A stretch of DNA of 60,541 nt, the filler included. It is 5 parts of 5 records of this genome, joined end to end, with 100 filler letters (N's around TTAATTAATTAA, not from the genome) between each part and the next. Parts side by side here need not be neighbours in the genome. Positions count along the whole stretch, not along the records: positions 14,340 to 27,920 come from SRR31156797_3780; 4 more parts are not named here. One strand, 5' to 3'. Shown in pieces: positions 13,166 through 55,330 of this stretch; within the stretch, counting starts at the first letter, position 1, and every line of letters begins with the position of its first letter. A model generated the notes under the pieces. It saw only the letters and a list, made by a program, of their open reading frames with translations. It was not told the origin of the DNA and made no database searches. The translations under genes and the position numbers were made by a program.

Positions 13166-14020
13166 TTAGGCTGTTTTTTTCATCTTGTATAGTGAGTTAA
13201 AAATAAGTGTCAAAAGTATTATTGCTCCTCCTATAAAAGTATTTGAATATGGAACTTCATTTAAAAATATCCAAACCCAAATTGGAGCCATTATTGTTTC
13301 TATAATCATCAAAAGACTTGCTTCACTTGCATTAATAAATTTTGTGCCTTCCATAATTAATAATCTTGATATTGGAGTTACAAGCACACCCATCAAAAGA
13401 ACAAACACCAAATCTTTTATTGAGATTGTTAAGTTGTCTGCTAAAAAATATGTCAAACTTGATAAAATAATTCCAGAAATACATATAAGAAGTGTTCTAT
13501 TGAAATCTGTATGTTTAGACAAAATAACAAAAAACAATGACATACATATTGTACACATTAAAGCATAGAAATCTCCTAATAAACTCCCAAATTCAATATT
13601 TGTTCCAAAGATTATAAATAAGCCTATAAATATAAAAAATGAAGAGATAAATATATTTTTTGTTGGTTTGATTTTATAAAAAATGTACGAAAAGAATGCT
13701 GTAAATAAAGGTGTAGTTGCAAGTATTAATACAACATTTGATGCAAATGTATTTTTATTTGCTGATATAAAAAATAGATTCCCTAAAGCCATAAAAAATG
13801 TTCCTAGCAATACTATTTTAAAATTTGGCTTTTTTATCTCTATGCTAATATTTCTTTTCTTGTAAATAAGAATAAAAAGCATAGATAGAAACATACATAA
13901 TCCAATATAAAAAGAAAAAACAAAAGGTTTTATACTTGTAAGTTTAATTAACAGAGATTCAAAGCTCATGATAAAAACTCCAATAGAAGTTAAGACTAAG
14001 CCTTTTGTAGTATTTGTCAT
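13166..14020 (-). CDS. DMT/EamA-family transporter
   Basis: About ten TM helices, GDFYAL, IET..APIWVWIFLNEVP...GGAII. Confidence 0.9.
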   Translation of the reverse strand: MTNTTKGLVLTSIGVFIMSFESLLIKLTSIKPFVFSFYIGLCMFLSMLFILIYKKRNISIEIKKPNFKIVLLGTFFMALGNLFFISANKNTFASNVVLILATTPLFTAFFSYIFYKIKPTKNIFISSFFIFIGLFIIFGTNIEFGSLLGDFYALMCTICMSLFFVILSKHTDFNRTLLICISGIILSSLTYFLADNLTISIKDLVFVLLMGVLVTPISRLLIMEGTKFINASEASLLMIIETIMAPIWVWIFLNEVPYSNTFIGGAIILLTLIFNSLYKMKKTA

Positions 14021-14038
14021 TTTCTTTCCTAAAAATAC

Positions 14039-14056
14039 AAGGTTCTGTTGAACCTT
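14039..14056 (-). terminator. Hairpin after metH
   Basis: AAGGTTC-tgtt-GAACCTT followed on the minus strand by a T-rich run. Confidence 0.5.
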
Positions 14057-14061
14057 ATATT

Positions 14062-14238
14062 TTAAATATTATAATAGTTTGCTTTGTGATGAGGCACAAT
14101 AATTGCGCAAGTTGATTGTTCAGGATGTATTTGGAAAGTTTCTGATAACTCTATTCCAAACTCTTCTGGATTTAATAAATCAAAGATATCTTTACTTAAT
14201 TCTAACTCTGGGCAAGCTGCATATCCAGGAGAGTATCT
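14062..14238 (-). CDS. metH: B12-dependent methionine synthase, C-terminal fragment (cut by contig end; absent from ORF track)
   Basis: Manual translation RYSPGYAACPELELSKDIFDLLNPEEFGIELSETFQIHPEQSTCAIIVPHHKANYYNI* matches the MetH activation-domain end. Confidence 0.9.
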   Translation of the reverse strand, partial: RYSPGYAACPELELSKDIFDLLNPEEFGIELSETFQIHPEQSTCAIIVPHHKANYYNI

Positions 14239-14239
14239 A

Positions 14240-14339
14240 NNNNNNNNNNNNNNNNNNNNNNNNNNNNNNNNNNNNNNNNNNNNTTAATTAATTAANNNNN
14301 NNNNNNNNNNNNNNNNNNNNNNNNNNNNNNNNNNNNNNN
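14240..14339. other. Artificial contig spacer
   Basis: N-run with TTAATTAATTAA at 14284-14295; composition changes abruptly. Confidence 0.99.
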
Positions 14340-17300
14340 TAATGGGTAAGCGTTGTTCAGCAATACCATTGGATCATCTTCACAGGCTTCCATAAACGGT
14401 GGGCAGTCCATTAGCGGACTGTTGTTAACGATAACTATAAATGTACAGCTGTCACTACAACCCGTATCTGGATCTGTGTAAGTGTACATAATCGGATGAT
14501 TACCTGGCCCAACTGAATTGGGATAGAAAATGCCGGCTGTAACTCCGGTTCCAGAATAGGTGCCTCCTGATGGTAATCCTCCGCTCAGGGTAATCGGCCC
14601 GTCTTCAGGACAAACAGCAAAATCATCCGGACACGTAACTGTTGGTTTTGGGTTTACGATAACCGTTACTGAATCAAAAGCAGCATCACCAAAGGCATTG
14701 CTAACCGTAACAATATATGTTGTGTTAACAGTGGGTGTATCAGATGGGTTTTGCTGTGATGATGTAAATCCAACTGGGTTTGAAGTCCATGCAAAATTAT
14801 TGGCCCCACAACCTCCCGAAACATTCGCAGCCAGTTGGGTTGTTTCTCCCTCACATAATACAGCAGGTGTGGCGGATGCAGTTACACCCAGTTTTTTGAT
14901 TACTGACATCAAGGCTGAAATTCCGTTGTCATGGAATTTACCATCAGAATGTGGTAAGGCAGGGTTGTAAGTCACAAGAATTTCTTCCTCTGTCGCGGAG
15001 TTACTGTAATAAGCTCTCCAGGTGAAATCTTCATTTTCATCAAAGCCCTCCTTGATTGTGGTTGTGGTTACATCATCACCAAAGGCAACAAGTGTTTGGT
15101 TATTGATGCCATCCCAGAATGTAGCTCCACCACATGCCGGATTGCCGTTTTCATCGAGGTAGAATGTTCCCAGGAAATCACCTTGCGACAGGGAAACACA
15201 ATTAAATGTTATTGATGTCGGGATGCTGATGATGTGGGAAGATCCTGTTGGTGTATAACCCCAATCCGGAGGATGAATAATCAACCTGTAGTCTTCTACT
15301 TCACCATTTTCTGCAGAACCATAATAATTGAGTCCACCGGTGGTGTTAAAACGAAACCTGATATAGGTAGCGCCCGGTTTGATGTCTTCCGGGATATCAA
15401 ATGTTAGTGTGTTCATGCCGGATGTCAGAGGAGTGTTGTTGAATATATGTTCATCCGCCTCAATCCAGCTGCCATTCATATTAAAGTCGATCCATGCATT
15501 CAGATAACCATCCACAGATGCTTTGACTTTGATTTCGGCTGTTTCTCCAACCACAAAGGGTTCGATGAAAGTGACGCCGTCCTCATCAAAAACATTGTTG
15601 AGGTCATCCCCTGTTGCCGCCATATTTGGCATGCCATCCGGTTCTGTATCGATAGCATTTCCCAGGTAAGTTTGTCCATCCACAAAGTGTCGGGCTCCAT
15701 TGCTGGCAAGTAACGTTGGATAGGGCTGATCGGGCGCATCGCCAAAATCATAATCCTCGCCAACAACTTGTTCGCTGGTAATGATGAAGGCCATATTCCT
15801 GTCGAGTTGCGCCTCATACCCGGTTTCATCTCTTTGGATCGGCGGACTCAATACCATAGTTTCACCATTGGTTTGCCACTCCCAAATAACATTGTTCTGT
15901 GGGTTAGCAGATAACGCCATCAGCTCCAGCCAATAGAAATTACCCTCGATTTGAGCAAAAGGTTCGGGCAAAACAAAATAATAATAGTAAAGATCATCCA
16001 GGGTTATTGCCTTAATACCGGTATAGTATTCTCCAACTTCTCCAGGGTTTGTTCCAAATGGAGCGTCCCAAGTTAAAATCATTCCGCCAGGCTTATTATA
16101 AGGACCGGAAGCATCGTTGTCATAGATGGTGATGCGGAATCCGGCGCATGGCCCTGTGTTTGGTGCTTCGTAATAGCCCCACCAGTGCAGATCGGTAACT
16201 TCACCGCCTTCACATTTCCAGTCGTCTGCGATAAATAAATCAGGACCTTCCTGTTGATTTGCATGATATCCATGGAATTCTGTATTGGGTTCCTGGATCC
16301 ATTTGATGGTTTCATTTTCTATAATCTCAATTTTATAATCTTCAACTTCACCATTTTCGGCAAGACCTGTAAAGGACAGTCCTGATTGTTGTGATGAGAA
16401 CCTGAATCTTGCATAGGTTGATCCCTTGAGTGCGTTTGTCGGGACAAGGAATGTGAGGTTATTATCACCGGCAGTCAGCATTTCATCTGCAAAGATTTTC
16501 TCTCCAACATCAGCCCAACTTCCGTTCTGGTTGAAGTCAATCCATGCACTCAATCCTCCATTTACCGATGCGTTCACATTGATTTGAGCCGGCTTACCCG
16601 GTATCAATGCCGAAAGGAAAGTAACTCCGTCTTCATCATCCTGGTCGTTCACATCATCTCCATCAGCATTAGCTGTTGGCTGGCCGTCGAATTCCCAGTC
16701 AATGGTATCGCCAAGGTAGGTAACACCGTCGATGATATGACGTGCACCGTCATTAACAAACAATGTTGGATACGGATCATCAGGTGCATCACCAAAATCC
16801 ATTCCTACAACCCTGATAGTGAAATCACCAACTGAAGTAAATCCAATTTGATAAGTATATGAATAAGTAACTTCATAATAACCGGTATCTGTCGGGAAAA
16901 ACAGGCTGTCCTGGAATCCGGGACCATCAAATGATCCTCCCGGCGGGTTAGCGCCTTGCGGAACAAACGGAGGAGAACCGGCCCGTACTGTTGTATCGGG
17001 ACAGGATGCTTTTGTAACCCTGGTAATCACTGTTGTTCTTTCACTTTTGTGGCCATCGTTATCGATCGCCCTGGTCCTTACCACGCTTTTTCCGGTATCA
17101 CTTACTAGTACATCCACAGGCGGAAATAGCGGACCCTGGGTTACGGTGCCGGTACCAGTCACACTTGGAACAGGCTCGTTAGGACAAATCATAATGGTGC
17201 TGAATATTTTGGCGCCATTAGGTGGATAGTTGTCATCAAACCCGGAACATGTTCCTGAACTCTCATTAATATCTCCCTCGATATATTCTTCAAGGCCATC

Positions 17301-19640
17301 ACCCGGATCCATATAATCAAACCTGCGTTTACCTTCTTTTGGACTGTTATGCACTGAACTCATAGTCATGAAATGCCCAACCGTATCAACTTTTCCCTGG
17401 GCGTTGGTTTCGGTCCACATAAAGAGTTGTATGATGTCCTGTTCGATACCATTAATAAGTCCATCACCTTCAAGCTTATTTCGCATATTAGTGCTGTTGA
17501 ATTTATTGTAAGGCATCGGTCCTGATACTTTAAACCCATTGCCGTGTTCTTTAATCCATTTTCTGGCACCATTGGCCATATCAGTATCTTTTGTGCCTTT
17601 TTCGGCATCATATTTAACATAAGGTTTTAATGCTTCAGCAAGATCTCCTACTGATAGGCCGCCATCTATGTTAGGATATCCGGCATTAGCAAATGTCTTT
17701 AAACATGCCGCTAACGCATAAGGACCACATGACATATCATCCTGTTGCTCAGCGTGAGGTACATCTTTTTGATACCATTCTGGTTTTTTCTCGATCTCGA
17801 AGATTACAGAATCTAAGTTTGCAAGCTCCGGCATTATCGAAATGGTAATAACCTCTTCATCTGTAACGAACCCTTCCTCCAGCGAAGATTCAAATGATGA
17901 TGGAGGGGTAGGATCATACATAATCGGTTCTTCGTTAATAACATCCACAACAGTTCCATCAATCGTAACAGCTTCGGCCATGAAGAAAAGTGGAAGTAAT
18001 GATTGATCTAATATCTCGTGTGGTAAATAGCCTGACCAGCCATCAGCTTCTTCCTGCATTGAGTTTGTTGGCCCAGGAGCAGGATAGCTAAATCCATCGT
18101 TATCGGTATAAAATAAATTCCAGGATTTTGAACCTAAACTGTGTGAGTAGAAGAAGTTCACAGATGCAATTTGCTCATCAGGATCATCTGCAAATAACTG
18201 AACCGGGGTGGTATCGTTTACGTTTCCAATCCATGCATACCATGGTTCAGGATCGGCTTTAAACGTTGGCCTTAAGAACAAACCTGATGGTTGAATAACG
18301 GGATCATCACAATCTTTTTCTTTGAAGCAGGTGTGAATGATATTCCCACTCAGGATATAGTTGAAACCGCGGATATCTATCGATAACCATTCGGGATTAA
18401 AATCCGGAATCTGGTAAATGATATTATCTATCAGGATAGGTTCGAACAGATTTCCCTGATGTACAAAAATAGTTTCTGAACGCTCAATGTACAAGTCTTC
18501 GATCTGCGGATCGGGAACATCTTCAGGAAGTGGTGGTCGGCTCACTTCAGGATATCCGGGCCAGTTGGGCGTTGACCAGTTAAATACAATCTCAACCTCC
18601 GTCGGGAAGTCGGGATTCCTGGGCTCAATGATCATATTGGCTTTGATTTCTTTCCTCCTGGAATTGTTAACCGGGTGATCGTAGAACCATACATTCCACC
18701 AGCCATAGTTGGGATATTCGAACCATTGGCCTTCGGCAAACCCAGTGCCTCCAAACTGTCCTGCAAATCCCTCCTCAGTCATTTCAACCATAAAATCATC
18801 CATGCGTTGAAGCAGGGGGCTCAAATACAGTACATTGTTTTCGCCTGATTTCAGCACCAAAAAATCTTCACCTATGGGGTCAAAGGAATTAGGAATGGGT
18901 GAATGTGTCCAGTCGTAGAGATCAGCCTGGGTTAGGGTGAGGGGCTCATAACCCATTTCCAGCGGGCTAAAAATTACCACATTGGATGGGTCGTCAACCT
19001 GGGTGAATATAAAACGCGGATAAAATGAGAGGGTTGTAGTAAATTCACCGCCCCACTCATCCTGCTTTGTGATCACCTGTGAACTGGCTTCGGGCTTTGG
19101 CATTTCAATTTCAACAAATACATCAAAAAACGAATCAAAGCCACCCATATCAACTGCTACGGGTTCAGCACCCTGAACCAGCAAAACCGGAATATCCAGC
19201 AAAACAATCTGATCATCGGGTAATGGTTCAGAAAAATTAACATCAGATAGCCTTTCGAGATGCAGATCAACTTCAGGCATCGTGGTGCCCTGAGAATTAG
19301 CGCCGAACAGATCGATTGTTCCGGTAAAAGGTTCTGATCCAGGACCAAAAAAATCAGGAGGCAGGGGGGGGTATGCTCCTTCATTACCAATTTCAATCTG
19401 GCCACAGGTCAATGTAAAATATTCAGCACCTGATAAAATAAATTCTGATTTTGAATTTTTTAGGTTATCCCCGTCAAAACCATGATCGGGAAGGATTAGA
19501 TCATCAGCTATTGCTGATGTTTGGGGATTTAAATAACAAGGATCATCACCATTGTTATTTACTTTTTCGGCACTAATCGTATCCTGACAAAAAATTGCCA
19601 GAAGTGCCATTGTAACAAATGTGTATAATAACTTTTTCAT
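14340..19640 (-). CDS. Giant secreted multidomain protein with C39-like cysteine peptidase domain and two GEVED modules, 3'-truncated
   Basis: Signal peptide; QQDDMSCGPYALAACL...GHFMT...YMDPG (Cys-His-Asp); two DFGDAP...GEVEDY modules; Ig/PKD-like repeats. Runs into the spacer, so a T9SS tail cannot be seen. Confidence 0.85.
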
Positions 19641-19677
19641 AACTGTAAGTATTTAGGTTTTCAAAATTTTTGTTTGT

Positions 19678-19815
19678 TCACTTTTGACGAAAATCAATTT
19701 TTAAAGGCTGGGAAGAAAAAGCCAAATAGCCTGTCAGGCCATTTTCAGTGCTAAAAATAGGCAATCCAAGGCTATTTGGCAAATCTTTCACGTTTTTGTT
19801 TTTATTTTTCTTCAT
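19678..19815 (-). CDS. Possible 45-aa leader ORF
   Basis: MKKNKNKNVKDLPNSLGLPIFSTENGLTGYLAFSSQPLKIDFRQK*, preceded by an A/C-rich Bacteroidetes-type leader. Overlaps the hairpin below. Confidence 0.25.
   Translation of the reverse strand: MKKNKNKNVKDLPNSLGLPIFSTENGLTGYLAFSSQPLKIDFRQK
19716..19780 (-). terminator. Long leader hairpin with U-tract (possible attenuator)
   Basis: 12-bp perfect stem GCCAAATAGCCT/AGGCTATTTGGC with an inner imperfect stem, followed by TTTTTCTT on the coding strand, about 80 nt before the ATG. Confidence 0.5.
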
Positions 19816-19977
19816 GCTTCACGCTTTTGTTTTGTTGTTTGTTTATTAATAATTGGTTTAAGGGGTTGGGGGTACTGACTGGGTTGTGATGAGAAAAAAG
19901 CAGTCTGAAGGGGGTTATATCTTAAAATATTTCAATCCATTTTTTCAAACCTGTTTTTTGTTTACTGGTTTCAGTTT

Positions 19978-19995
19978 TTCAAGTACTGTGCCCAA
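19978..19995 (-). promoter_or_regulatory. Sigma-54-type promoter of the C39-like protease gene
   Basis: TTGGGCAC-AGTAC-TTGAA against consensus TGGCAC-N5-TTGC; the -12 C deviates. Confidence 0.55.
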
Positions 19996-20112
19996 CTGTT
20001 TCCTTTTATGAAAAATATATGATTGTTGGTTTATAAAAACCTGAAAAAGAACGGTGTATAACCATGATTTTTTTTGTGGTTTTGCTTGCCTTTCACAAGG
20101 CTGATTAATCTA

Positions 20113-20165
20113 TGGGCGAATTTCACCAGGTGATTTCACCCATATGGGTGAAAAATCACACCCAT
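20113..20165. promoter_or_regulatory. Cluster of palindromic enhancer-like sites
   Basis: TGGGCGAATTTCACCA, GGTGATTTCACCCA, TGGGTGAAAAATCACACCCA; about 120 bp upstream of the -24 element. Confidence 0.65.
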
Positions 20166-20211
20166 TCATTTTTTTTTGATTCTTTTAAACTTCATGAAAA
20201 GAAAGAACTGT

Positions 20212-20245
20212 AAAAAACGTCTTCCCGGAGTTTCACCGGGAAGAC
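20212..20245 (-). terminator. Rho-independent terminator after the C10 protease gene
   Basis: GTCTTCCCGG-tgaaact-CCGGGAAGAC followed by GTTTTTT. Confidence 0.85.
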
Positions 20246-20275
20246 TGGAAGTAATTCGACCTCCTCTTGCAATAT

Positions 20276-23200
20276 TTATTTACGAATTACTATTTTCTTA
20301 GTAATTACCTGTTTTGAAACTGAGACACTAAGCAGGTAACACCCTTCAGCAAGTCCGGATACATCCAATGTAGTTTCAGCAGCGTTTGCCGTTGTGTTGA
20401 TGATTTCATTACCTATCACATCACACACGATCAGGCGGGCCGATCCGGAAGTTTCGTTGAGGTTTATTTTGATATATCTTGATGCCGGGTTCGGGAATAC
20501 CTTAATACTTTCAAGATCCGTTACACCTTTAATCCCGGTTTTCAGTTCCAGTAGGGAAATACCATTGGGTGTAAAATAGTTACAATCATTCATGGAATCA
20601 CCACCTGAACTTACATCCAACAACTCATCCTCCGAATTATTGATGTTATATCTCCGGTATGTGATCGGCTCGCCTTCAATCATCCCGTCTATTTGAGAGG
20701 TTGTGGGGTCGTCAGCATAAATTGCCATCACCTGGTCAGTTCCAGTAATGATGGAGTAACCCACGCACAATCCATTGCTGTTGAACGCTCCGATTACATC
20801 ACCTATGTTAAATAGTGATGAACCAGCTTTAGAAATGGCTACCAGGTGTGATCCGGGAGTGGGTTTAACCGTTGGCCAGGGAGAAACTACAGAACCAGAT
20901 TCAACTGGTAGGGTGCTTCCAATTGTTGCTGATTTTGCAGGGAAATTAATGATAACGGGTGAGGTTACATATACATAATAACTTTCGCCGGGATGCAACA
21001 TCACCAGGGTTGTAATTCCCATAGCAGGCCAGTAAACGCCGGGGCCGGCAATTTCTTTAACCAGCATTACCTGTGGAATGTTGAACAGGCTGGAAGTAGC
21101 TGTTGCTGTTGAACTCAAAATGGGTATGATATGCCAGCCCGGGTTCAGTGTTAAGGTGCGTGAGGTGAGCGCGTTGCCGTTAACAGTTAATACAGCATCC
21201 TGGCTAACCTTGGCCACATATCCTGAAGTTGTATTCCACGACATCAACGTGTTTATTCCTGCACCGGGCCAGTAAACACCGGTTAAGTTTCTGAGAATGA
21301 TCAGCTCGTTGCCAATCGGGCTCATCATGGTGTCGATGTTGGGATTCACCGGATTCAGGTAGCTTGAAAGCCCGTTCCATCCCTTGAAAAGGTTGATGGT
21401 TTGTGTGCTGTATGTATTCATACTCAGCAATGCAGAAATGCCATTATCGTAATAATTGCCATCATACTGCGGTTGTGACTGGTCATAGGTTACGCTTACA
21501 TCATGACTCGACAGTGTGCCCCAGCTGTAAACTTTCCATTTAAGGAACTCACCATTCAAAAAGCCGTCTTTCTGTGGTGTAGAGCCATCATCACCATATG
21601 CCTGCACACTAATGTTGTTCATGCCATCCCAAATTCCATAGCCGCCACATATTTCATTTCCATTGTTATCCGTATAAAATACACCCATCAGATCCCCATT
21701 GTTAAGGGGTGCGCCATTCAAGCTTGGGTTCGCCGACAATGGAACCGAGATGATGTGAGAAACATTGGTAACTGTGTGTTGCCATCCTTGTGGCATAACG
21801 TTTACCGTCCCTGATTTTGTTTCTGTACCGTTTGCGTTTGTCACGGTAAGCGAAACCGGGTAAGATCCTGGTGTGTTATATTGAACAGCCGGGGGAGTTG
21901 AACCATTAAACGATGAGGGGTTGCCGCCAGTGAAAGTCCAGTTCCATGCTGTTGGATTACCTGTTGAAAGATCGGTGAATACAATGGATTGCCCGGCATA
22001 GATCATGCTGTTTACCGGGCTGAAGTCTGCTTTTGGGGAAACAGGATTGGCTTTTGCGGGCACAATGGTAATGGCATCAATATCATCCATAAAACCATCG
22101 GGTACAAGGTCGAACCACCATCCTGTCATCCATGTTACATAAATAGCGTTGGGCATCATGCCGCCTGATTCATCACCCGGAGTAGTTGGATCATCTTCAT
22201 CTACACTAAAAATCATAGCCAGTGCCATATAATTGTGGTCAGGATCAGGGTATTCCATCCAGGTAAATTCAAAAGCATCAATATCCGTGTCGGGGAAAAG
22301 GCCGATATCAGTTTGTGCATTGATCACTTCGTAGGCCTTCCCGTTTTCAGCCAGGTAAATGCTCCCCGGATTAATGGGGTTTCCTGCATGGTCAAAATAA
22401 ATGGCTTCATGGTCGGCACTAAAATAGGTGCGTGTAATATCTTCAAGATTTAACGGAACATCCAAAGCGTCCACATCATCATCATGGTCATTTGGCATAG
22501 CGGCATTGATGTCAGGGTTTGGTGCCAGGTTAGGGTGGATGGTTGCCTCATCATATTTTGGATTTATGGATATCAGCTGGCCACTCAACGGATATACAAT
22601 GTCGATGTCAACTTCCAAAACTTCATCTTTTGTAGCTGTTTGCCCGTATAGCATTCCTATGGATGAAAAGCCAAGTCTTGGAATGCTTCCAGTAGGATCA
22701 GAATAAGGCATAAAATCGTCATCATCATAAGAAATATAAAGGCTGTCGGTATCATGGATGAAATCATCTTCAAACTTTTCAACAGGGGGCTGGCCTTCAC
22801 CAAACGGATATTCACGCATGTCGCAAATTGCCAGATCAATACCGTCCATATCGAAAAAATCATGTTTTATTATTCCAATGGGCATTCCGCAAAGGCACGG
22901 CGCTCCTGTACCGGGAACTCCACCATCGGGGAAAGGATCCATACCAAAGCCCATTACATCATCAATTAAGCCTTCGGTTCCCGGCATGTTCATATATGTT
23001 CCAGGATGCAGGTAGGCATCACCCGGATCAAAAACTTCATCACCATCAATCACAGGATCACTGATTTCAGCATCCGAACCAATATCAACGGAGAAGAGCA
23101 TATAATCATCGTTAACGGCCTGTCCCTCTTCTTCAATCCTGATAAAATAATCTTCAACCTCACCATCCTGGGCAAGGCCGGTATAACTTAGGTTTCCTTG

Positions 23201-24778
23201 TGTGCTATAGCGGAAACGGGCATAAGTCCAGCCAACATAAGCAGAAGCAGGAATGTTGAGTGTAACATTATTGGTACCATGGTAAAGTGATTTATTGGTA
23301 AAAATCTGTTCTCCGGAATCTGCCCAGTCGCCATCCTGATTAAAATCCATCCAGGCATCCAGCAGACCTGCACCATAGGCATTAACCGTTAGTGTTACCG
23401 TTGCTCCCTGTGATAACATGGGAAATACAACCCCGTCTTCATCATCCAGGTTGTTGTTATCATCGCCAATACAATTCACATGAGGCTGACCATCCGACTC
23501 GGCATCTATCAGAGAACCCAAAAACAAGTTTGGTGTGGCCGGAATCTGGTGACATGCCCCTGTGCTCGCCGAAAGTGTTGGATAACCGGGATTGTCGGGA
23601 GCATCGCCCCAATCGAAATTACCTGTGCTTGGAATAAGGCCAAAAATCGCCCTTTGTCCATAAGTGAAGTCATATCCTACTGCAGGATTCAAACTTGATA
23701 GTGAATAATAACCATCGTACCATCCGCTCCAGCCCCAATTCACATGAAAGTAGTTCATGCTGTTATAACCATCAACATTAAAGGCGTGTCCCATGTTGTA
23801 ACCTGAATCATAACCTACATATACCAGAGGCCGGCTCAAATCCAGTTCGCTTTTCACAGCAGCCTCCCAGGCCGACATGTTTGCGTAATTCGACCGGTAA
23901 TTCCAGTATATATTATTGTTGTAACTGAAATTGTTTTGCAATGCATTGAGGATATCCTGCTCCCAATTTGGTCCGAATGGTAATGATGCTGTTGGCCCGT
24001 AATTCATGTTCACAGCAACACCGCAATGAAATATCAGTTGGGCAATGTTGGTGTTGGTTGTAAAAATAGAGTTGGGCATCATCGCGTAATTATATGTGGC
24101 TGCAGCAAAATTTGCACTGATGTTCCCATAGGTTGGGTGGATATAACTGTTTGAGCCTGAACCCTGGGAGGGGTGCTGCCAATATTTCATTACCTGGGCC
24201 ATCGACGTTGCCACACATCCGGCATAGGCATGTCCGCCCGGACCACTTATGTCCCACGGACATTGCTGGTTGTAATATTGGTTCTGATTCCAGGTAGTTG
24301 AGAGGAGTGGTGTAACAGATTTTGCTCCGGGAGCCGCCGGAACGAATTTTTCATATCTATCCCACAGGGCATCTATTTCACCTGTCGATTCTATTCCATT
24401 ACTGATCACCTCCGCTGCCTGTGCGGTATAATTGCTTAATAAATAGCTTAACGAGGCAGGGATTTCAGTTCCTGTCCAGCTACCTGATGTGGTATAACCG
24501 GCAATTGGTTTAAGGTGGTCATCCGCAGTAACAATGATAAAACCATCGTTCTGATTGATGTTGAAAATATAAAATGCCGTAACGCCATTCAGATTTTCTT
24601 CTGAGGCGAGGCTCAGATTCACCTGATCATAATTAAGAATTTGGGTCTTGTTGCAGTTTTCCCAATAGTAGTTTTTGCCGATTAAAGCGGCATCTTCTTT
24701 TGATACATGTTCTGCACTTACGGAGAGAGACAGCAGCAGAATCAAGATCATCCCGATTGTAAAAGTTTGAGTTTTCAT
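20276..24778 (-). CDS. Secreted peptidase C10 (streptopain/SpeB family) with prodomain, GEVED, acidic domain, PKD and T9SS C-terminal domain
   Basis: Signal peptide; prodomain GFIIVTADD; WNQ..YYN, AGCVATSMAQVM, GHAFNVDGY, HVNWGWSG; GEVEDY; PKD WNWTFTGGNP; VFPNPA...GCYLL...KKIVIRK tail. Confidence 0.93.
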   Translation of the reverse strand: MKTQTFTIGMILILLLSLSVSAEHVSKEDAALIGKNYYWENCNKTQILNYDQVNLSLASEENLNGVTAFYIFNINQNDGFIIVTADDHLKPIAGYTTSGSWTGTEIPASLSYLLSNYTAQAAEVISNGIESTGEIDALWDRYEKFVPAAPGAKSVTPLLSTTWNQNQYYNQQCPWDISGPGGHAYAGCVATSMAQVMKYWQHPSQGSGSNSYIHPTYGNISANFAAATYNYAMMPNSIFTTNTNIAQLIFHCGVAVNMNYGPTASLPFGPNWEQDILNALQNNFSYNNNIYWNYRSNYANMSAWEAAVKSELDLSRPLVYVGYDSGYNMGHAFNVDGYNSMNYFHVNWGWSGWYDGYYSLSSLNPAVGYDFTYGQRAIFGLIPSTGNFDWGDAPDNPGYPTLSASTGACHQIPATPNLFLGSLIDAESDGQPHVNCIGDDNNNLDDEDGVVFPMLSQGATVTLTVNAYGAGLLDAWMDFNQDGDWADSGEQIFTNKSLYHGTNNVTLNIPASAYVGWTYARFRYSTQGNLSYTGLAQDGEVEDYFIRIEEEGQAVNDDYMLFSVDIGSDAEISDPVIDGDEVFDPGDAYLHPGTYMNMPGTEGLIDDVMGFGMDPFPDGGVPGTGAPCLCGMPIGIIKHDFFDMDGIDLAICDMREYPFGEGQPPVEKFEDDFIHDTDSLYISYDDDDFMPYSDPTGSIPRLGFSSIGMLYGQTATKDEVLEVDIDIVYPLSGQLISINPKYDEATIHPNLAPNPDINAAMPNDHDDDVDALDVPLNLEDITRTYFSADHEAIYFDHAGNPINPGSIYLAENGKAYEVINAQTDIGLFPDTDIDAFEFTWMEYPDPDHNYMALAMIFSVDEDDPTTPGDESGGMMPNAIYVTWMTGWWFDLVPDGFMDDIDAITIVPAKANPVSPKADFSPVNSMIYAGQSIVFTDLSTGNPTAWNWTFTGGNPSSFNGSTPPAVQYNTPGSYPVSLTVTNANGTETKSGTVNVMPQGWQHTVTNVSHIISVPLSANPSLNGAPLNNGDLMGVFYTDNNGNEICGGYGIWDGMNNISVQAYGDDGSTPQKDGFLNGEFLKWKVYSWGTLSSHDVSVTYDQSQPQYDGNYYDNGISALLSMNTYSTQTINLFKGWNGLSSYLNPVNPNIDTMMSPIGNELIILRNLTGVYWPGAGINTLMSWNTTSGYVAKVSQDAVLTVNGNALTSRTLTLNPGWHIIPILSSTATATSSLFNIPQVMLVKEIAGPGVYWPAMGITTLVMLHPGESYYVYVTSPVIINFPAKSATIGSTLPVESGSVVSPWPTVKPTPGSHLVAISKAGSSLFNIGDVIGAFNSNGLCVGYSIITGTDQVMAIYADDPTTSQIDGMIEGEPITYRRYNINNSEDELLDVSSGGDSMNDCNYFTPNGISLLELKTGIKGVTDLESIKVFPNPASRYIKINLNETSGSARLIVCDVIGNEIINTTANAAETTLDVSGLAEGCYLLSVSVSKQVITKKIVIRK

Positions 24779-24826
24779 GTCTTTTTATTTTTTGTGTTTG
24801 TAATTAGTTAGATTGAAAACCCAATA

Positions 24827-24843
24827 GGCCAATGCTGTGCCAG
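24827..24843 (-). promoter_or_regulatory. Sigma-54 promoter of the C10 protease gene
   Basis: CTGGCAC-AGCAT-TGGCC (GG-N10-GC), about 50 nt upstream of the ATG. Confidence 0.65.
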
Positions 24844-24967
24844 ATGTTTATCGAATATATGTAGAGTTGTGTTTGTTAAGTTTTTATATTGCTGGTTTTC
24901 TGATCATTAAAAACAATTGCGATCAGATAAAAAAACATTTTTGAAAAATTTATCTAAGCAAGCCGGG

Positions 24968-25034
24968 TGGGCAAAATCACCCTGATGGGTGAAAAAGGTG
25001 GGTGAAAATCAGCTGTTATGGTGATAATTACCGG
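24968..25034. promoter_or_regulatory. Second cluster of the same enhancer-like sites
   Basis: TGGGCAAAATCACCC, TGGGTGAAAAAGG, TGGGTGAAAATCAGCT, TGGTGATAATTACC; about 125 bp upstream of the -24 element. Confidence 0.65.
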
Positions 25035-25158
25035 ATGCCGTTTCCAAAACAGGTACCTGTTTTAGGAACATGATGGAAGTTTTCGGTATCTGTTTTCACA
25101 GAACCCAGGATTTATAATGAAAATAGTGGATTGGAAATAAAAGAGAATCATTTGAACT

Positions 25159-26559
25159 TTACTCCACAACCTTCTGTATCACAATGCCATGCTTTTTGAT
25201 GCGGTGTTTCAGCGCATCGCGGGAAAGCCCAAGCAGATCGGCGGCCTTAATCTGGTTACCACCGGTTTCCCTCAGAGCAGCTTCCATCAGGTTTTTCTCA
25301 TTTTCATCCAGGTTAAAGGATTGAATTTCCGGAACAGTAGATTTTCCCGAACCATCATGCTTGTCACCAATGTTTATGGAAAAATCATCCGGGGTGAGTT
25401 TTTTGCCATCGAAAAGAATCAGGGCACGCTCAACCATGTTTCTCAACTCACGAACGTTTCCGGGGAAATTATATCTCCTAAGGCGGGTAATCAGGTCTTT
25501 TTCGATGATGGGTGATTGCTTCTTCTTTTTGGTGCAAAGTTCATCCACAAAATGTTTCAGCAATGGCTCAATGTCTTCAGGCCGGTCCCGCAGCGGTGGG
25601 ATATTAATGATAAAAGTGTTGATGCGGTGGTATAAATCCAGCCTGAATTTTTCCTCTTCGATCATCTTTTGGATGTCCTTGTTGGTGGCCGAAATGATTC
25701 GCAGATCAACATTAATTTCCTTGGTGCTGCCAATGCGTTTAATTTTGCGCTCTTCCATAGCGCGCAGCAATTTGGCCTGGAGTGAAAACGGCATGTCGGC
25801 AATCTCATCCAAAAACAGGGTGCCGCCATTGGCCATTTCAAAAAAACCCTTTTTATCCTCTTTGGCATCGGTGAAAGCTCCTTTTTTATGCCCGAAAAAT
25901 TCGCTTTCAATAAGCGTGTCGGGGATGGCGGAACTGTTTACCGGCACAAAAACCTGCTTTTTGCGATCGCTGGCATAGTGGATTATCCTGGCCAGGATTT
26001 CCTTTCCGGTGCCATTTTCACCAGTGATCAAAACACTTGCTTCATTATCGCGGGCCACTTTTATGGCCATATCCACAACCCTGATTATTTCCTTGCTTTG
26101 GCCAATAAAATCTCGCTGCATGCTGCTTTCCAGCTCGCGGGAAATCAAGGACTTTTGATCCTCAATGGTTTCCAACCTGTTGAGGAGTTGAACGTATTTG
26201 CCGGTGCGTTCGATGGCAAAAAATATCTCGGAAAGGGTAAACGGTTTTCTTACAAAATCGATGGCTCCCTGTCGTTGGGCTTCAATTACGATGTCGATGT
26301 CTTCCTGGCCGCTCACCATGATAACCTCTGTTGCCGGGTAGTCCTTCTTGATTCTTTTCAGGATATCGATTCCATTCAAATCATTGGGGATCATAAAATC
26401 CAGCAAAGCAATATCTATGTTATGATCTTCCAGTATCCGAAAAGCATTTTTCGAGCTGTTGGCTTCAAAAACCAGAAACCCTTTTCGTGATAGTTGCTTG
26501 TTGAGTTGTTCGGTTATTTTAGTTTCGTCATCCAGAACAAGAACCCTGATGGCATTCAT
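25159..26559 (-). CDS. Sigma-54-dependent response regulator (REC-AAA+-Fis HTH, NtrC/AtoC family)
   Basis: VLDDE/LLDFMIP receiver, GENGTGKE, ESEFFGHKKGAFTDA, TLFLDEI, FRLDLYHRI, PGNVREL, GGNQIKAADLLGLSR. Start MNAIRV supported by the promoter just upstream. Confidence 0.95.
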   Translation of the reverse strand: MNAIRVLVLDDETKITEQLNKQLSRKGFLVFEANSSKNAFRILEDHNIDIALLDFMIPNDLNGIDILKRIKKDYPATEVIMVSGQEDIDIVIEAQRQGAIDFVRKPFTLSEIFFAIERTGKYVQLLNRLETIEDQKSLISRELESSMQRDFIGQSKEIIRVVDMAIKVARDNEASVLITGENGTGKEILARIIHYASDRKKQVFVPVNSSAIPDTLIESEFFGHKKGAFTDAKEDKKGFFEMANGGTLFLDEIADMPFSLQAKLLRAMEERKIKRIGSTKEINVDLRIISATNKDIQKMIEEEKFRLDLYHRINTFIINIPPLRDRPEDIEPLLKHFVDELCTKKKKQSPIIEKDLITRLRRYNFPGNVRELRNMVERALILFDGKKLTPDDFSINIGDKHDGSGKSTVPEIQSFNLDENEKNLMEAALRETGGNQIKAADLLGLSRDALKHRIKKHGIVIQKVVE

Positions 26560-26584
26560 AATTTTGCTGGTTTGGTAAACCTTA

Positions 26585-26592
26585 CAAAGGTA
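26585..26592 (-). promoter_or_regulatory. Bacteroidetes housekeeping -7 element
   Basis: TACCTTTG matches TAnnTTTG, 25 nt upstream of ATG 26559. Confidence 0.6.
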
Positions 26593-26639
26593 ATAATTCA
26601 AAATTATTGATAAAATGAGAACCATGGTGAAGCGAGAAG

Positions 26640-26677
26640 AAAATGAAAAGGGCGAAAAACCGATTGGTTTTTCGCCC
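26640..26677 (-). terminator. Terminator after aldehyde dehydrogenase
   Basis: GGGCGAAAAACC-aatc-GGTTTTTCGCCC followed by TTTTCATTTT. Confidence 0.85.
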
Positions 26678-26702
26678 AAAAAAATTGGGTGATTATCTCA
26701 AT

Positions 26703-27920
26703 CTAATCATCAAATAATTCAAACTTTATTCCTTGCGCCAGTGGCAATTCCTTACTAAAGTTGATTGTGTTTGTTTGCCGGCGCATGTAGGCCTTCCAGG
26801 CATCAGAACCCGATTCACGACCGCCACCGGTGTCTTTTTCACCGCCAAATGCACCACCAATTTCAGCGCCGTTTGTAGCAATATTTACATTGGCGATTCC
26901 GCAATCGGAGCCGGCATGCGAAAGGAAAAGCTCCGTTTCGTGCATGTTTTTGCTAAAGATGGCCGATGACAATCCCTGTGGAACGGCATTATGTATTTCG
27001 ATGGCCTCTTCGATGGTTTTATATTTGATGAGGTAAAGCAGCGGGGCGAATGTTTCTTCCTGCACAATCTCCCAATGATTTTCTGCTTCGGCAATAGCCG
27101 GGCGAACGTAACATCCCGACTCATATCCTTCACCTTCAAGCACCTCACCACCATAAACTATTTTACCACCCGATTTGATTACCTCTTCCTGGGCAATCCT
27201 GAAAGTTTCAACAGCGGCTTTGTCGATGAGCGGGCCAACGTGGGTGTTTTCATCCAGGGCGTGACCAATTTTAAGCTGGTTATATGCTTTGATCAGTTTT
27301 TCCTTAAACAGGTCATAAACTACCTCATGAATAATCAAACGGCGTGTTGATGTACAGCGCTGACCGGCGGTTGCTGTGGCACCAAACATGCTGGCACGCA
27401 GAGCCATGTTCAGGTTGGCATATTGCGAAATAATGATGGCATTGTTTCCTCCCAGTTCGAGGATTGTTTTTCCCAACCGTGAACCCACGATATTATTCAC
27501 TCTTTTACCAACTCTTGTGGAGCCTGTAACTGAAACCAGTGGAATTCTGGGATCTTTCAGGAAATCATCACCCACATATTTTGAGCTGCCTGCAACCAGG
27601 CTGAGAATACCCGCCGGGAGCTTGTTTTCGCGCATTACTTTTTCGATGATGTTATGGGTGGCAATGGCCGAAAGGAAAACTTTAGAGGAGGGCTTCCACA
27701 ACACAACGTCGCCTGCAATTAAAGCAATCATGGCATTCCAGGCCCAAACGGCAACCGGAAAGTTAAACGCTGAAATCACACCCACAATGCCCAGCGGATG
27801 GTACTGATCGTACATGCGGTGCAGTTCGCGCTCCGAGTGCATGGTAGAACCATAAAGCTGACGCGACTGCCCAACAGCGAAGTCGGCTATATCGATCATC
27901 TCCTGCACTTCACCCAGGCC
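26703..27920 (-). CDS. Aldehyde dehydrogenase, ALDH7 / piperideine-6-carboxylate dehydrogenase type, 5'-truncated
   Basis: [31 protein letters not shown], catalytic [31 protein letters not shown]. Confidence 0.93.
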
Positions 27921-28020
27921 NNNNNNNNNNNNNNNNNNNNNNNNNNNNNNNNNNNNNNNNNNNNTTAATTAATTAANNNNNNNNNNNNNNNNNNNNNNNN
28001 NNNNNNNNNNNNNNNNNNNN
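27921..28020. other. Artificial contig spacer
   Basis: N-run with TTAATTAATTAA at 27965-27976. Confidence 0.99.
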
Positions 28021-40554: not shown

Positions 40555-40654
40555 NNNNNNNNNNNNNNNNNNNNNNNNNNNNNNNNNNNNNNNNNNNNTT
40601 AATTAATTAANNNNNNNNNNNNNNNNNNNNNNNNNNNNNNNNNNNNNNNNNNNN
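40555..40654. other. Artificial contig spacer
   Basis: N-run with TTAATTAATTAA at 40599-40610. Confidence 0.99.
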
Positions 40655-52866: not shown

Positions 52867-53653
52867 TATTCATCCTCTTTTTCAGGATCTCTGGTATCTC
52901 AACCGCCCTTTTATTGTGTGGCAAAAAAGCTTTGAGCTTCTGTTCGATAATGCGGTGGCTTTCACCGGCCTGTATGGCCATGAGTCCTTCCAGAACCAGA
53001 TCCTTAATCAGAATCTCCTGTCTGCTGCGGGTCTTCAGTTTTGCGGCAATGGGCATCAGCAGCAAATTGGCCAGGACCGTCCCATAGAAAGTCGTCAGTA
53101 ACGCCACGGCCATGGGCGGCCCGATTTTGCTGGGATCATCCATCTGCATCAACATCTGCACCAGCCCGATGATGGTCCCCATCAAACCCACAGCCGGTGC
53201 GTAAGCGGCCATGGTCGTAAATATCTCGGCACCCAGGTAGTGACGTTCTTCCACATACAGAATCTCCGTGGTCAGGACTTCTTTGATGGATGTGGATTCC
53301 ACGCCGTCAATGGCCAGGGAGAGTCCTTTTGAGAAAAAGGGATCGTCAATTTCATGCATTCTGGATTCAAAGGCCAAAATGCCTTCCCGTCGGGCCAGTT
53401 TTCCAAACTCAACCATTTTTTCAATGATTTCCAAAGCAGGCTTGGTTCGGTGAAAAAAAACATTTTTCACGACTTTAAACACACCCAGTACCTGGGTGAT
53501 GGGATAGCTCAAAAGCGTCGCTCCCACTGTCCCACCAATGACAATCATGAGGGATGGAACACTGATAAACCACGCGGGCGACCCCCCCAAAACAATCGCA
53601 CTGATAACGAGTGCCCCGGCCATGAGAATGCCGACAATCGTCGCAATATCCAT
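52838..53653 (-). CDS. motA: Stator subunit MotA/PomA
   Basis: MDIATIVG with GGAGG RBS, ARREGILAFE, PAVGLMGT.IGLV.ML, IGPPMAVALLTTFYG. Confidence 0.96.
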   Translation of the reverse strand: MDIATIVGILMAGALVISAIVLGGSPAWFISVPSLMIVIGGTVGATLLSYPITQVLGVFKVVKNVFFHRTKPALEIIEKMVEFGKLARREGILAFESRMHEIDDPFFSKGLSLAIDGVESTSIKEVLTTEILYVEERHYLGAEIFTTMAAYAPAVGLMGTIIGLVQMLMQMDDPSKIGPPMAVALLTTFYGTVLANLLLMPIAAKLKTRSRQEILIKDLVLEGLMAIQAGESHRIIEQKLKAFLPHNKRAVEIPEILKKRMNNGKHGHFKM

Positions 53654-53688: not shown

Positions 53689-53705
53689 AGCAAACATTGT
53701 GCCAT
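53689..53705 (-). promoter_or_regulatory. Sigma-54 promoter of motA operon
   Basis: TGGCAC-AATGT-TTGCT, a perfect consensus match 35 nt upstream of the ATG. Confidence 0.85.
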
Positions 53706-55230: not shown

Positions 55231-55330
55231 NNNNNNNNNNNNNNNNNNNNNNNNNNNNNNNNNNNNNNNNNNNNTTAATTAATTAANNNNNNNNNNNNNN
55301 NNNNNNNNNNNNNNNNNNNNNNNNNNNNNN
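55231..55330. other. Artificial contig spacer
   Basis: N-run with TTAATTAATTAA at 55275-55286. Confidence 0.99.

Follow-up and report, generated by a model that had tools for sequence, protein, structure and literature searches.

The window analysed here, a stretch of 60.5 kb, contains at positions 14340-27920 a contig of 13.6 kb, the locus under study, with four genes that all lie on the minus strand. One of them (25159..26559) encodes an orphan NtrC-type response regulator of 466 amino acids, a predicted enhancer-binding protein with REC, AAA+ and Fis-type helix-turn-helix (HTH) domains. The others include gene B (20276..24778), coding for a 1500-amino acid cargo protein of the type IX secretion system (T9SS), and gene A (14340..19640), the 5' part of a gene for a giant secreted modular protein of which 1767 amino acids are visible before the contig end cuts off the 3' end. 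Judging from the DNA, this locus is likely to be a sigma-54 regulon in which the neighbouring activator drives sigma-54 promoters of secreted-protein genes through an upstream dyad, and further T9SS cargo is probably under the control of the same activator. The core of this idea, i.e. an activator, a shared upstream palindrome and sigma-54-type promoters of neighbouring secreted-protein genes, had been put forward in an earlier inspection of the bare DNA (the sequence-only reading), and it is now supported by conservation and co-occurrence. What carries it is the set of sequence features, the fact that they are conserved and occur together with the activator ortholog, and the presence of rpoN in relatives.

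The two clusters of repeats that had been proposed before genes A and B, at 20113..20165 and 24968..25034 (no strand assigned), are real, and all four exact copies of the 9-mer TGGGTGAAA found on both strands of the window lie within them. The register in which the palindrome had been drawn (TGGGTGAAAATCACCCA) was nevertheless wrong; the conserved dyad is TTTCACCC-N4-GGGTGAAA, and the TGGGTGAAAATCACCCA pattern arises because neighbouring extra half-sites abut. The conserved core is thus a convergent palindrome, TTTTCACCC-N4-GGGTGAAAA, located at 20136-20151 and 24977-24992. In the predicted upstream activating sequence of gene A the half-site cluster surrounds a perfect 20-bp palindrome (TTTCACCCATATGGGTGAAA) centred 152 bp away from the GG at -24, and in that predicted for gene B the core dyad (TCACCCTGATGGGTGA), centred 144 bp from the GG, is accompanied by more half-sites at 24999-25009 and elsewhere. 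The perfect form TCACCC-N4-GGGTGA is present twice in the window, once per cluster, and it was absent from 2.14 Mb of 159 unrelated loci.

Both genes are preceded by -24/-12-like elements at the places where the sequence-only reading had located them, and the stretch GGCACAG is common to the two. The consensus of sigma-54 promoters has a GG at -24 and, separated from it by 10 nt, a GC at -12. The gene B candidate (TGGCACAGCATTGGC, 24828..24842, minus strand) has the GG-N10-GC form, differs from TGGCAC-N5-TTGC at one position, lies 50 nt before the ATG and is identical in the closest relative, genome G422. The gene A candidate (GGGCACAGTACTTGA, 19979..19993, minus strand) shows a correctly spaced GG and TTG, two mismatches to the same consensus and a GA rather than GC at -12 (GG-N10-GA), and it is separated from the ATG by a 340-nt leader. 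Matches to -24/-12-like elements were not enriched across the window (57 versus 52.7 in shuffles), and therefore the weight of these elements rests on their position and conservation.

Conservation was analyzed in two relatives of the locus. In the metagenome contig L081 an activator gene whose product is 74% identical is followed by gene B and gene A orthologs, and the outer neighbours are different. The alignment of the four upstream regions (two from the window and two from L081) revealed one invariant block, TTT(T/G)CACCCAT-NN-(G/T)GG(T/C)GA, plus GGCAC at a fixed distance; GGCAC-N5-TKG was found 132-152 bp after the dyad in all four (centre-to-GG distances of 144, 152, 132 and 140 bp), the gene A-type promoter form in L081 being GGGCACACCTATTGA at 140 bp from the dyad. 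In an exhaustive search the best 16- and 20-mers common to the four regions corresponded to the dyad, and none of 40 dinucleotide shuffles equalled the score. In G422, whose activator is 93% identical, synteny extends over the activator and gene B (80% DNA identity, 5.9 kb) and ends upstream of the activator; here the gene B half-sites and the whole stretch from promoter to ATG are conserved, but the AT-rich spacer is not. Among 160 loci around activator homologs of 42-57% identity, no motif cluster was observed with the exception of L081.

A search with the gene A N-terminal domain in an order-wide sample of 401 genomes, from the order that holds a Prolixibacteraceae metagenome-assembled genome (MAG), led to G085, which has an activator ortholog 75% identical. 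The family to which G085 belongs comprised here 23 genomes, all of them MAGs of an uncultured Bacteroidales-order group, and the activator ortholog is present in 16 of them at 72-93% identity. Across the order, when four candidates per genome were scored, orthologs at 70% identity or more were found in 2 of the 401 genomes, both of the family. In the single case of G190, which has a gene A homolog, the best activator match was only 45% identical and no dyad or promoter was found upstream.

The 23 family genomes were scanned with a composite pattern, ACCC-N4-GGGT-N{95,155}-GGYAC-N5-TKG, which gave 28 matches compared with 2 for the reversed pattern used as control. Twenty-five of the matches lie in 13 of the 16 ortholog-bearing genomes and 3 in one (G424) of the seven genomes lacking the ortholog. 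The corresponding Fisher p value of 0.005 is not corrected for relatedness, and because the family genomes are related it is not an independent-sample probability. The same pattern in the 401 order-wide genomes yielded 71 matches versus 72 for the control, so that the approximately 65 matches in the 399 genomes outside the family are at chance level; from the order-wide rate, about 4 chance matches would be expected in the family. TTTT/AAAA flanks, which the pattern does not demand, were present in 22 of the 28 family matches. Six (L215, L219, L221, L229, L232 and L235) were set aside by eye since they lack T-rich/A-rich flanks, and two of these precede genes for NAD kinase and glycerate kinase. 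The composite sites often have additional half-sites, 10-25 bp from the core dyad towards the promoter, and the activator gene is found directly upstream of the composite in five lineages (the window, L081, G422, G410 and G411).

A consensus was derived from 27 sites, i.e. 22 from the family, two from the window, two from L081 and one from G422. The dyad reads (A/G)TTTTCACCC-A-N3-GGGTGAAAA and the promoter nGG(C/T)AC(A/G)-N4-TTG(A/C/G), and the distance from the dyad centre to the GG has a median of 144 bp (range 124.5-158.5), with 22 of the 27 sites at 138.5-152.5 bp. In 22 of the 27 sites ACCC, GGGT, GGYAC and TKG had been fixed beforehand by the search pattern, whereas the flanks, the purine that follows GGYAC in 25 of the 27 sites and the distance were free. 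At the position of the canonical -12 C, the sites have A (15), C (6), G (5) or T (1), and the preceding G as well as the GG are invariant.

The genes behind these sites encode putatively secreted proteins. Open reading frames (ORFs) of at least 80 codons within 700 nt were recovered downstream of 19 of the 22 family sites and inspected with Pfam and BLASTP, and all 19 have by eye a signal-peptide-like N terminus. Six are gene A-like, as judged by their N-terminal domain, three contain GEVED modules and two PKD domains; two encode Peptidase_C25 with its propeptide, one a C10 peptidase that is truncated by a contig end and represented by its I69 prodomain, and two M10-like peptidases, with 25.9 and 21.9 bits at a cut-off of 24. 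The list is completed by one FG-GAP protein, one DUF6923-like protein below the cut-off and one ORF with no assignment. The extracellular proteolysis programme that the sequence-only reading had envisaged is too narrow a label: secreted peptidases (C25, C10 and M10-like) are among the predicted targets, but what is conserved in this set is the giant modular type of secreted protein, and the peptidase domains of genes A and B are missing in the L081 orthologs.

The regulator next to gene B has the architecture that had been attributed to it, since Pfam recognized REC (PF00072, 83.5 bits), Sigma54_activat (PF00158, 225 bits) and HTH_8 (PF02954, 43.7 bits) within the product of 25159-26559, whose start is the ATG at 26559 (MNAIRVLVLDDE). 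The residues of the acceptor pocket (D10, D11, D54 and K105) are invariant in the alignment of homologs, and the translated AAA+ domain contains a Walker A motif, GENGTGKE, and LFLDE. The loop that would contact sigma-54 reads GAFTDA (in G085 GSFTDA) in place of GAFTGA, with the F and the T retained, and the recognition helix of the HTH is SRDALKHRIK. The LKHR and FTDA residues are common to the orthologs of the window, L081 and G085 and were found in none of eight more distant homologs. The best NCBIfam rows for this protein (AtoC, PEP-CTERM regulator and NtrC) were all far below their equivalog cut-offs. No kinase gene accompanies the activator on its contig, as the sequence-only reading had stated, although this contig covers only 13.6 kb. 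The next-closest metagenome homolog (L082 2149-6089) is 58% identical and has a GAFTGA loop, and it has a gene for a TPR-histidine kinase 12 bp before it and a PAS-kinase gene after it, which makes the lack of a neighbouring kinase a peculiarity of the activator's own ortholog group. In the region upstream of the activator (26560..26702, minus strand) a TACCTTTG box precedes the ATG by about 25 nt, and a terminator lies at 26650-26677; TAnnTTTG is the consensus of housekeeping promoters in Bacteroidota. Neither a dyad nor a -24/-12 element was found in this region, and hence there is no sign of autoregulation.

Several observations weigh against a sigma-54 regulon governed by this activator, and they have to be confronted with the alternatives that they favour. 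In the first of these alternatives sigma-54 makes no use of the -24/-12-like elements; the dyad would be the operator of a classical activator or repressor, possibly of the neighbouring activator itself working without sigma-54 in the manner of TyrR-like and loop-variant enhancer-binding proteins, and transcription would start at housekeeping promoters nearer to the genes. The -12 position carries the canonical C in just 6 of the 27 sites, so that it is non-canonical in 21 of them, and the gene A promoter itself has TTGA. Moreover, GGYAC and TKG were prescribed by the pattern through which part of the 27 sites had been chosen, and the canonical TGGCAC-N5-TTGCW was enriched neither in four family genomes (11 versus 8 control matches) nor in the window. 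The leaders are also long, extending over 340 nt in gene A (19641-19978), about 450 nt in L081 (15944-16392) and 270-560 nt in 10 of the 19 family sites for which an ORF was recovered, so that promoters nearer to the genes could exist. These leaders are poorly conserved; that of gene A contains a terminator-like hairpin at 19724-19744 and a 45-codon ORF without conservation, and the window and L081 leaders of gene A can be aligned solely over about 15 nt before the ATG; a short stretch, ATTTTGA(A/T)AAC, is conserved about 25 nt before the ATG in both. The contact loop is GAFTDA or GSFTDA and not GAFTGA, and for VfmH, which has the GAFTDA loop, an interaction with sigma-54 could not be demonstrated by its authors, as far as the consulted part of that report goes (PMC10714721).

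On the other hand, GG and TTG are invariant in the 27 sites and exactly spaced, the purine after GGYAC recurs, and the narrow distance between dyad and promoter is typical of DNA looping and would be needless for a classical operator. In addition, GAFTDA is a natural loop variant of DVU2106, an activator listed as sigma-54-dependent in the part consulted of a study on Desulfovibrio (PMC4641369). In agreement with a role of sigma-54, each of the 12 genomes tested, all of them from relatives of the source organism, has an rpoN gene (Sigma54_DBD exceeding the Pfam cut-off); they comprise five genomes with homologs of 52-54% identity plus G085, G190, G422, G421, G423, G418 and G419. Taken together, these data make transcription of the two genes independently of sigma-54 quite improbable.

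A second alternative is that the promoters are indeed sigma-54 promoters with an enhancer but that another enhancer-binding protein or a co-factor binds the dyad, the neighbouring activator being merely co-located. Several other enhancer-binding protein paralogs exist in these genomes, any of which could be the binder; G085 alone has at least 8 further ones at E<1e-60. The activator ortholog is not beside any target in G085 and G423, and three ortholog-bearing family genomes have no composite match. Furthermore, G424 (7.3 Mb), in which the best activator match is 40% identical, has three good composites (L223, L231 and L234) that precede gene A-like and PKD genes, which would be explained by gaps in this MAG or by a different protein that recognizes the site. 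The phyletic co-occurrence is also confounded by relatedness. In contrast, the activator gene stands directly before the composite in five lineages whose flanks otherwise differ, ortholog and composite are confined to one family, and the LKHR residues of the recognition helix are specific to the orthologs. We consequently regard a different binder as unlikely, and control by the neighbouring activator as the better explanation.

The remaining alternative attributes the upstream similarity to inheritance among recently duplicated paralogs, or to chance, without regulatory meaning. Many of the targets come from few paralogous families, and shared descent does contribute to the similarity of their upstream regions. 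The bare dyad is, moreover, at background: with up to one mismatch its density was 2.5 per Mb in family genomes with the activator versus 2.7 per Mb in those without it, and 4.2 per Mb in unrelated loci. An apparent enrichment of bare dyads in G085 (26 versus 3 reversed-control matches) was discarded, because the density is equal in family genomes lacking the activator and a bare-dyad count therefore carries no meaning. Nevertheless, among paralogs and orthologs only dyad and promoter are conserved, spacers and leaders having diverged beyond alignment, unrelated target families (C25, M10-like and FG-GAP) also carry the composite, and the excess of the composite over its control in the family contrasts with the chance level elsewhere. 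It is hence very improbable that descent or coincidence would suffice to explain the composite sites.

The proposed sigma-54 regulon would have the following mode of action, in which we infer that the activator binds the dyad, that sigma-54 reads the promoters and that phosphorylation is the trigger. The orphan response regulator would be phosphorylated on Asp54, presumably by an unlinked kinase, and would then oligomerise on the half-site cluster around the conserved core. From about 125-160 bp upstream it would loop over the AT-rich spacer to the RNA polymerase-sigma-54 complex held at the nGG(C/T)AC(A/G)-N4-TTG element, where ATP hydrolysis would open the promoter. In this way the activator would switch on two separately terminated genes, gene B, with its C10 domain and T9SS tail, and gene A, with its GEVED and DUF7901 modules and a papain-like insert, and in relatives the same signal might drive signal-peptide proteins of the gene A-like, GEVED, PKD, C25, C10 and M10-like peptidase types. 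A bolder extension, which we consider doubtful, is that the G[AS]FTDA loop has co-evolved with a private class of promoters lacking the -12 C, giving an insulated sigma-54 circuit that commands a T9SS-secreted arsenal. Its basis is the presence of G[AS]FTDA in the three orthologs read and in none of eight distant homologs, together with the TTGA form in 15 of the 27 sites. This arsenal, if the idea were true, would belong to an uncultured Bacteroidales family and would comprise its proteases and giant modular proteins, among them a peptidase family absent from the databases.

The sequence-only reading had described the products of both target genes as giant cysteine proteases. For gene B this agrees with Pfam, which detected a complete Peptidase_C10 domain (PF01640, 171 bits, positions 1-194 of 194) preceded by an I69 prodomain (PF13734, 49.9 bits), as well as GEVED and PKD modules and a Por_Secre_tail at residues 1427-1499 (PF18962, 47.7 bits; TIGR04183, 43.1 bits); the L081 ortholog also has a T9SS tail. 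The gene B ortholog of G422 is 84% identical, and that of L081 is 39% identical and aligns over residues 562-1500 only; the C10 domain was not found in it by tblastn. The gene is followed by an intrinsic terminator at 20219..20245 (minus strand), with a 10-bp stem including 7 GC pairs and then a run of T, which corresponds to the terminator already proposed between the two units, and genes B and A are therefore separate transcription units. The cargo family has expanded locally in G085, where the gene A-like target on contig C110 (L174, 1-14338) is surrounded by a tandem set of four paralogs, 31-33% identical to residues ~1100-1499 in the C-terminal part of gene B.

Gene A has GEVED and C-terminal modules in common with gene B. 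Pfam assigned to its product two GEVED domains and DUF7901, and since the 3' end lies beyond the contig a T9SS C-terminal domain is not visible there. In this case the protease assignment also holds, but through fold prediction and with Pfam silent. By sequence, residues 590-830 (17151..17873, minus strand) gave no match in Pfam and one chance match in the PDB at E 1.1, and a profile of the segment matched in the PDB solely the FlgD-like Ig domains of homologs. The segment contains SCGPYA...GHFMTM and has 88 homologs (cluster representatives) at E<=0.001, many of them in T9SS-tailed proteins; in an alignment of 24 sequences, all have C49 and H167, and at least 90% have Q43 and D189. Its AlphaFold2 (AF2) model (pLDDT 85, pTM 0.83) was compared with the PDB by Foldseek, and the top matches were staphopain, the C39 domains of PCAT1/ComA, a C39-like peptidase, Mac-1 and interpain (E 1.6e-5 to 5e-3), phytochelatin synthase-like enzymes being also among the best; the Foldseek probability was 1.00 to staphopain and C39 domains, with a TM score of 0.45-0.6 on the target. 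In agreement with this fold, sub-threshold matches to Peptidase_C39_2 were observed in 4 of 16 homologs, and an atlas-based lead for the segment pointed in the same direction (score 0.87). According to the model and its homologs, residues 590-830 are a papain-like (clan CA, C39/staphopain-like) cysteine-peptidase domain, which, having no Pfam family at threshold, falls outside any named family. The domain frequently occurs in 2-5 copies within proteins of 1000-3000 amino acids. The gene A orthologs in L081 are 49-53% identical, and the papain-like domain was not found by tblastn in the gene A homologs of L081, G085 or G190. The absence of peptidase domains from the orthologs indicates that the proteases are lineage-specific modules added to conserved scaffolds.

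Outside the activator and its two targets, the fourth gene of the contig is the 3' part of an aldehyde dehydrogenase gene (26703..27920, minus strand; Pfam), whose other end is cut by the contig end and whose intrinsic terminator (26650-26677, minus strand) is the one mentioned above in the region upstream of the activator. This neighbour varies among relatives, a MORN-repeat gene taking its place in L081. Between the stop codon of the activator gene and the gene B enhancer there is a perfect 18-bp palindrome, AAAACAGGTACCTGTTTT (25046..25063, no strand assigned), with one change in G422, which could be either a weak terminator hairpin or a second operator, that is, the site of a second regulator. 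Rfam revealed nothing credible at 14000-27000, with a single chance match at E 0.83.

The window as a whole is a concatenation of five contigs joined by spacers of 44 N, TTAATTAATTAA and another 44 N (14240-14339, 27921-28020, 40555-40654 and 55231-55330). The GC contents of the five are about 27, 43, 53, 48 and 34%, and the jumps coincide with the spacers. They may come from different organisms, and for this reason features were not combined across the joints; the local context of the locus is limited to its 13.6 kb, without the 3' end of gene A. Flagellar, type II secretion system and PorP genes and a perfect TGGCACAATGTTTGC before motA had been considered as evidence on the host and its use of sigma-54, and they were discarded because they lie on other contigs of very different GC. 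A GGAGGTG ribosome site and motA, whose true start is likely the ATG at 53652, follow that perfect sigma-54 promoter (TGGCACAATGTTTGC, 53690-53704, minus strand) at a distance of about 38 nt, and the arrangement looks like a sigma-54-dependent motAB unit of a flagellated organism unrelated to the gene A/gene B locus.

What the locus offers, as predicted from its sequence, is a triplet of activator, site and promoter with a defined consensus, and a list of predicted targets over 14 genomes that is enriched in secreted peptidases (C10, C25, M10-like and the new papain-like family) and in GEVED/PKD giants. It would permit the functional grouping of unannotated giant proteins of uncultured sediment or freshwater-type Bacteroidales and a search for the unlinked kinase of the activator and its signal. 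In full-text searches of the literature on sigma-54 and type IX secretion, no description of such a regulon or motif was found, in agreement with the earlier statement that none was known, and neither was a specific enhancer-binding protein tied to T9SS cargo genes nor an enhancer motif. A cross-phylum survey of predicted sigma-54 regulons makes, in the portion consulted, no mention of secreted peptidases or T9SS cargo (PMC12316311). The site and the class of targets are new, and the -12 is non-canonical. The mechanism is textbook, and the gain is therefore a new regulon and not a new principle.

Enhancers of sigma-54 activators are usually located some 100-150 bp upstream of the promoter. The system resembles the NtrC/AtoC/ZraR class both in the REC, AAA+ (PF00158) and Fis-type HTH architecture of the regulator and in the multiple inverted-repeat sites at this distance before a GG-N10-G(C) promoter. 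It differs from this class in the lack of an adjacent kinase gene, in the GAFTDA loop, in the TTTTCACCC-N4-GGGTGAAAA dyad and in a -12 that is mostly A, as well as in having secreted-protein targets instead of metabolic or transport genes and no equivalog in a named family. Two other activators, VfmH (Dickeya dadantii) and DVU2106 (Desulfovibrio vulgaris), also have the GAFTDA loop (PMC10714721, PMC4641369). They belong to unrelated lineages, have unrelated targets and are not known to share a DNA motif with the activator of the locus.

Within the Bacteroidota, most of what is known about the control of T9SS cargo comes from PorX/PorY-SigP of Porphyromonas. The likeness to this system of Porphyromonas gingivalis is that a response-regulator switch is tied to T9SS-dependent protease secretion; PorX, however, is a PglZ-domain regulator that acts with an extracytoplasmic function (ECF) sigma factor on secretion-machinery genes, whereas the gene A/gene B locus, as predicted from its sequence, would combine an AAA+ activator, sigma-54-type promoters and cargo genes. 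The nearest precedent is Flavobacterium psychrophilum, in which sigma-54 promoters of the SM4 type precede remFG-sprCDBF and genes for exported proteins, and promoter mutagenesis confirmed the use of the motif (PMC9723704). That study, in the part consulted, concerns a different order, names no specific activator or enhancer motif, and has gliding and chaperone genes as targets and not protease or GEVED cargo (PMC9723704).

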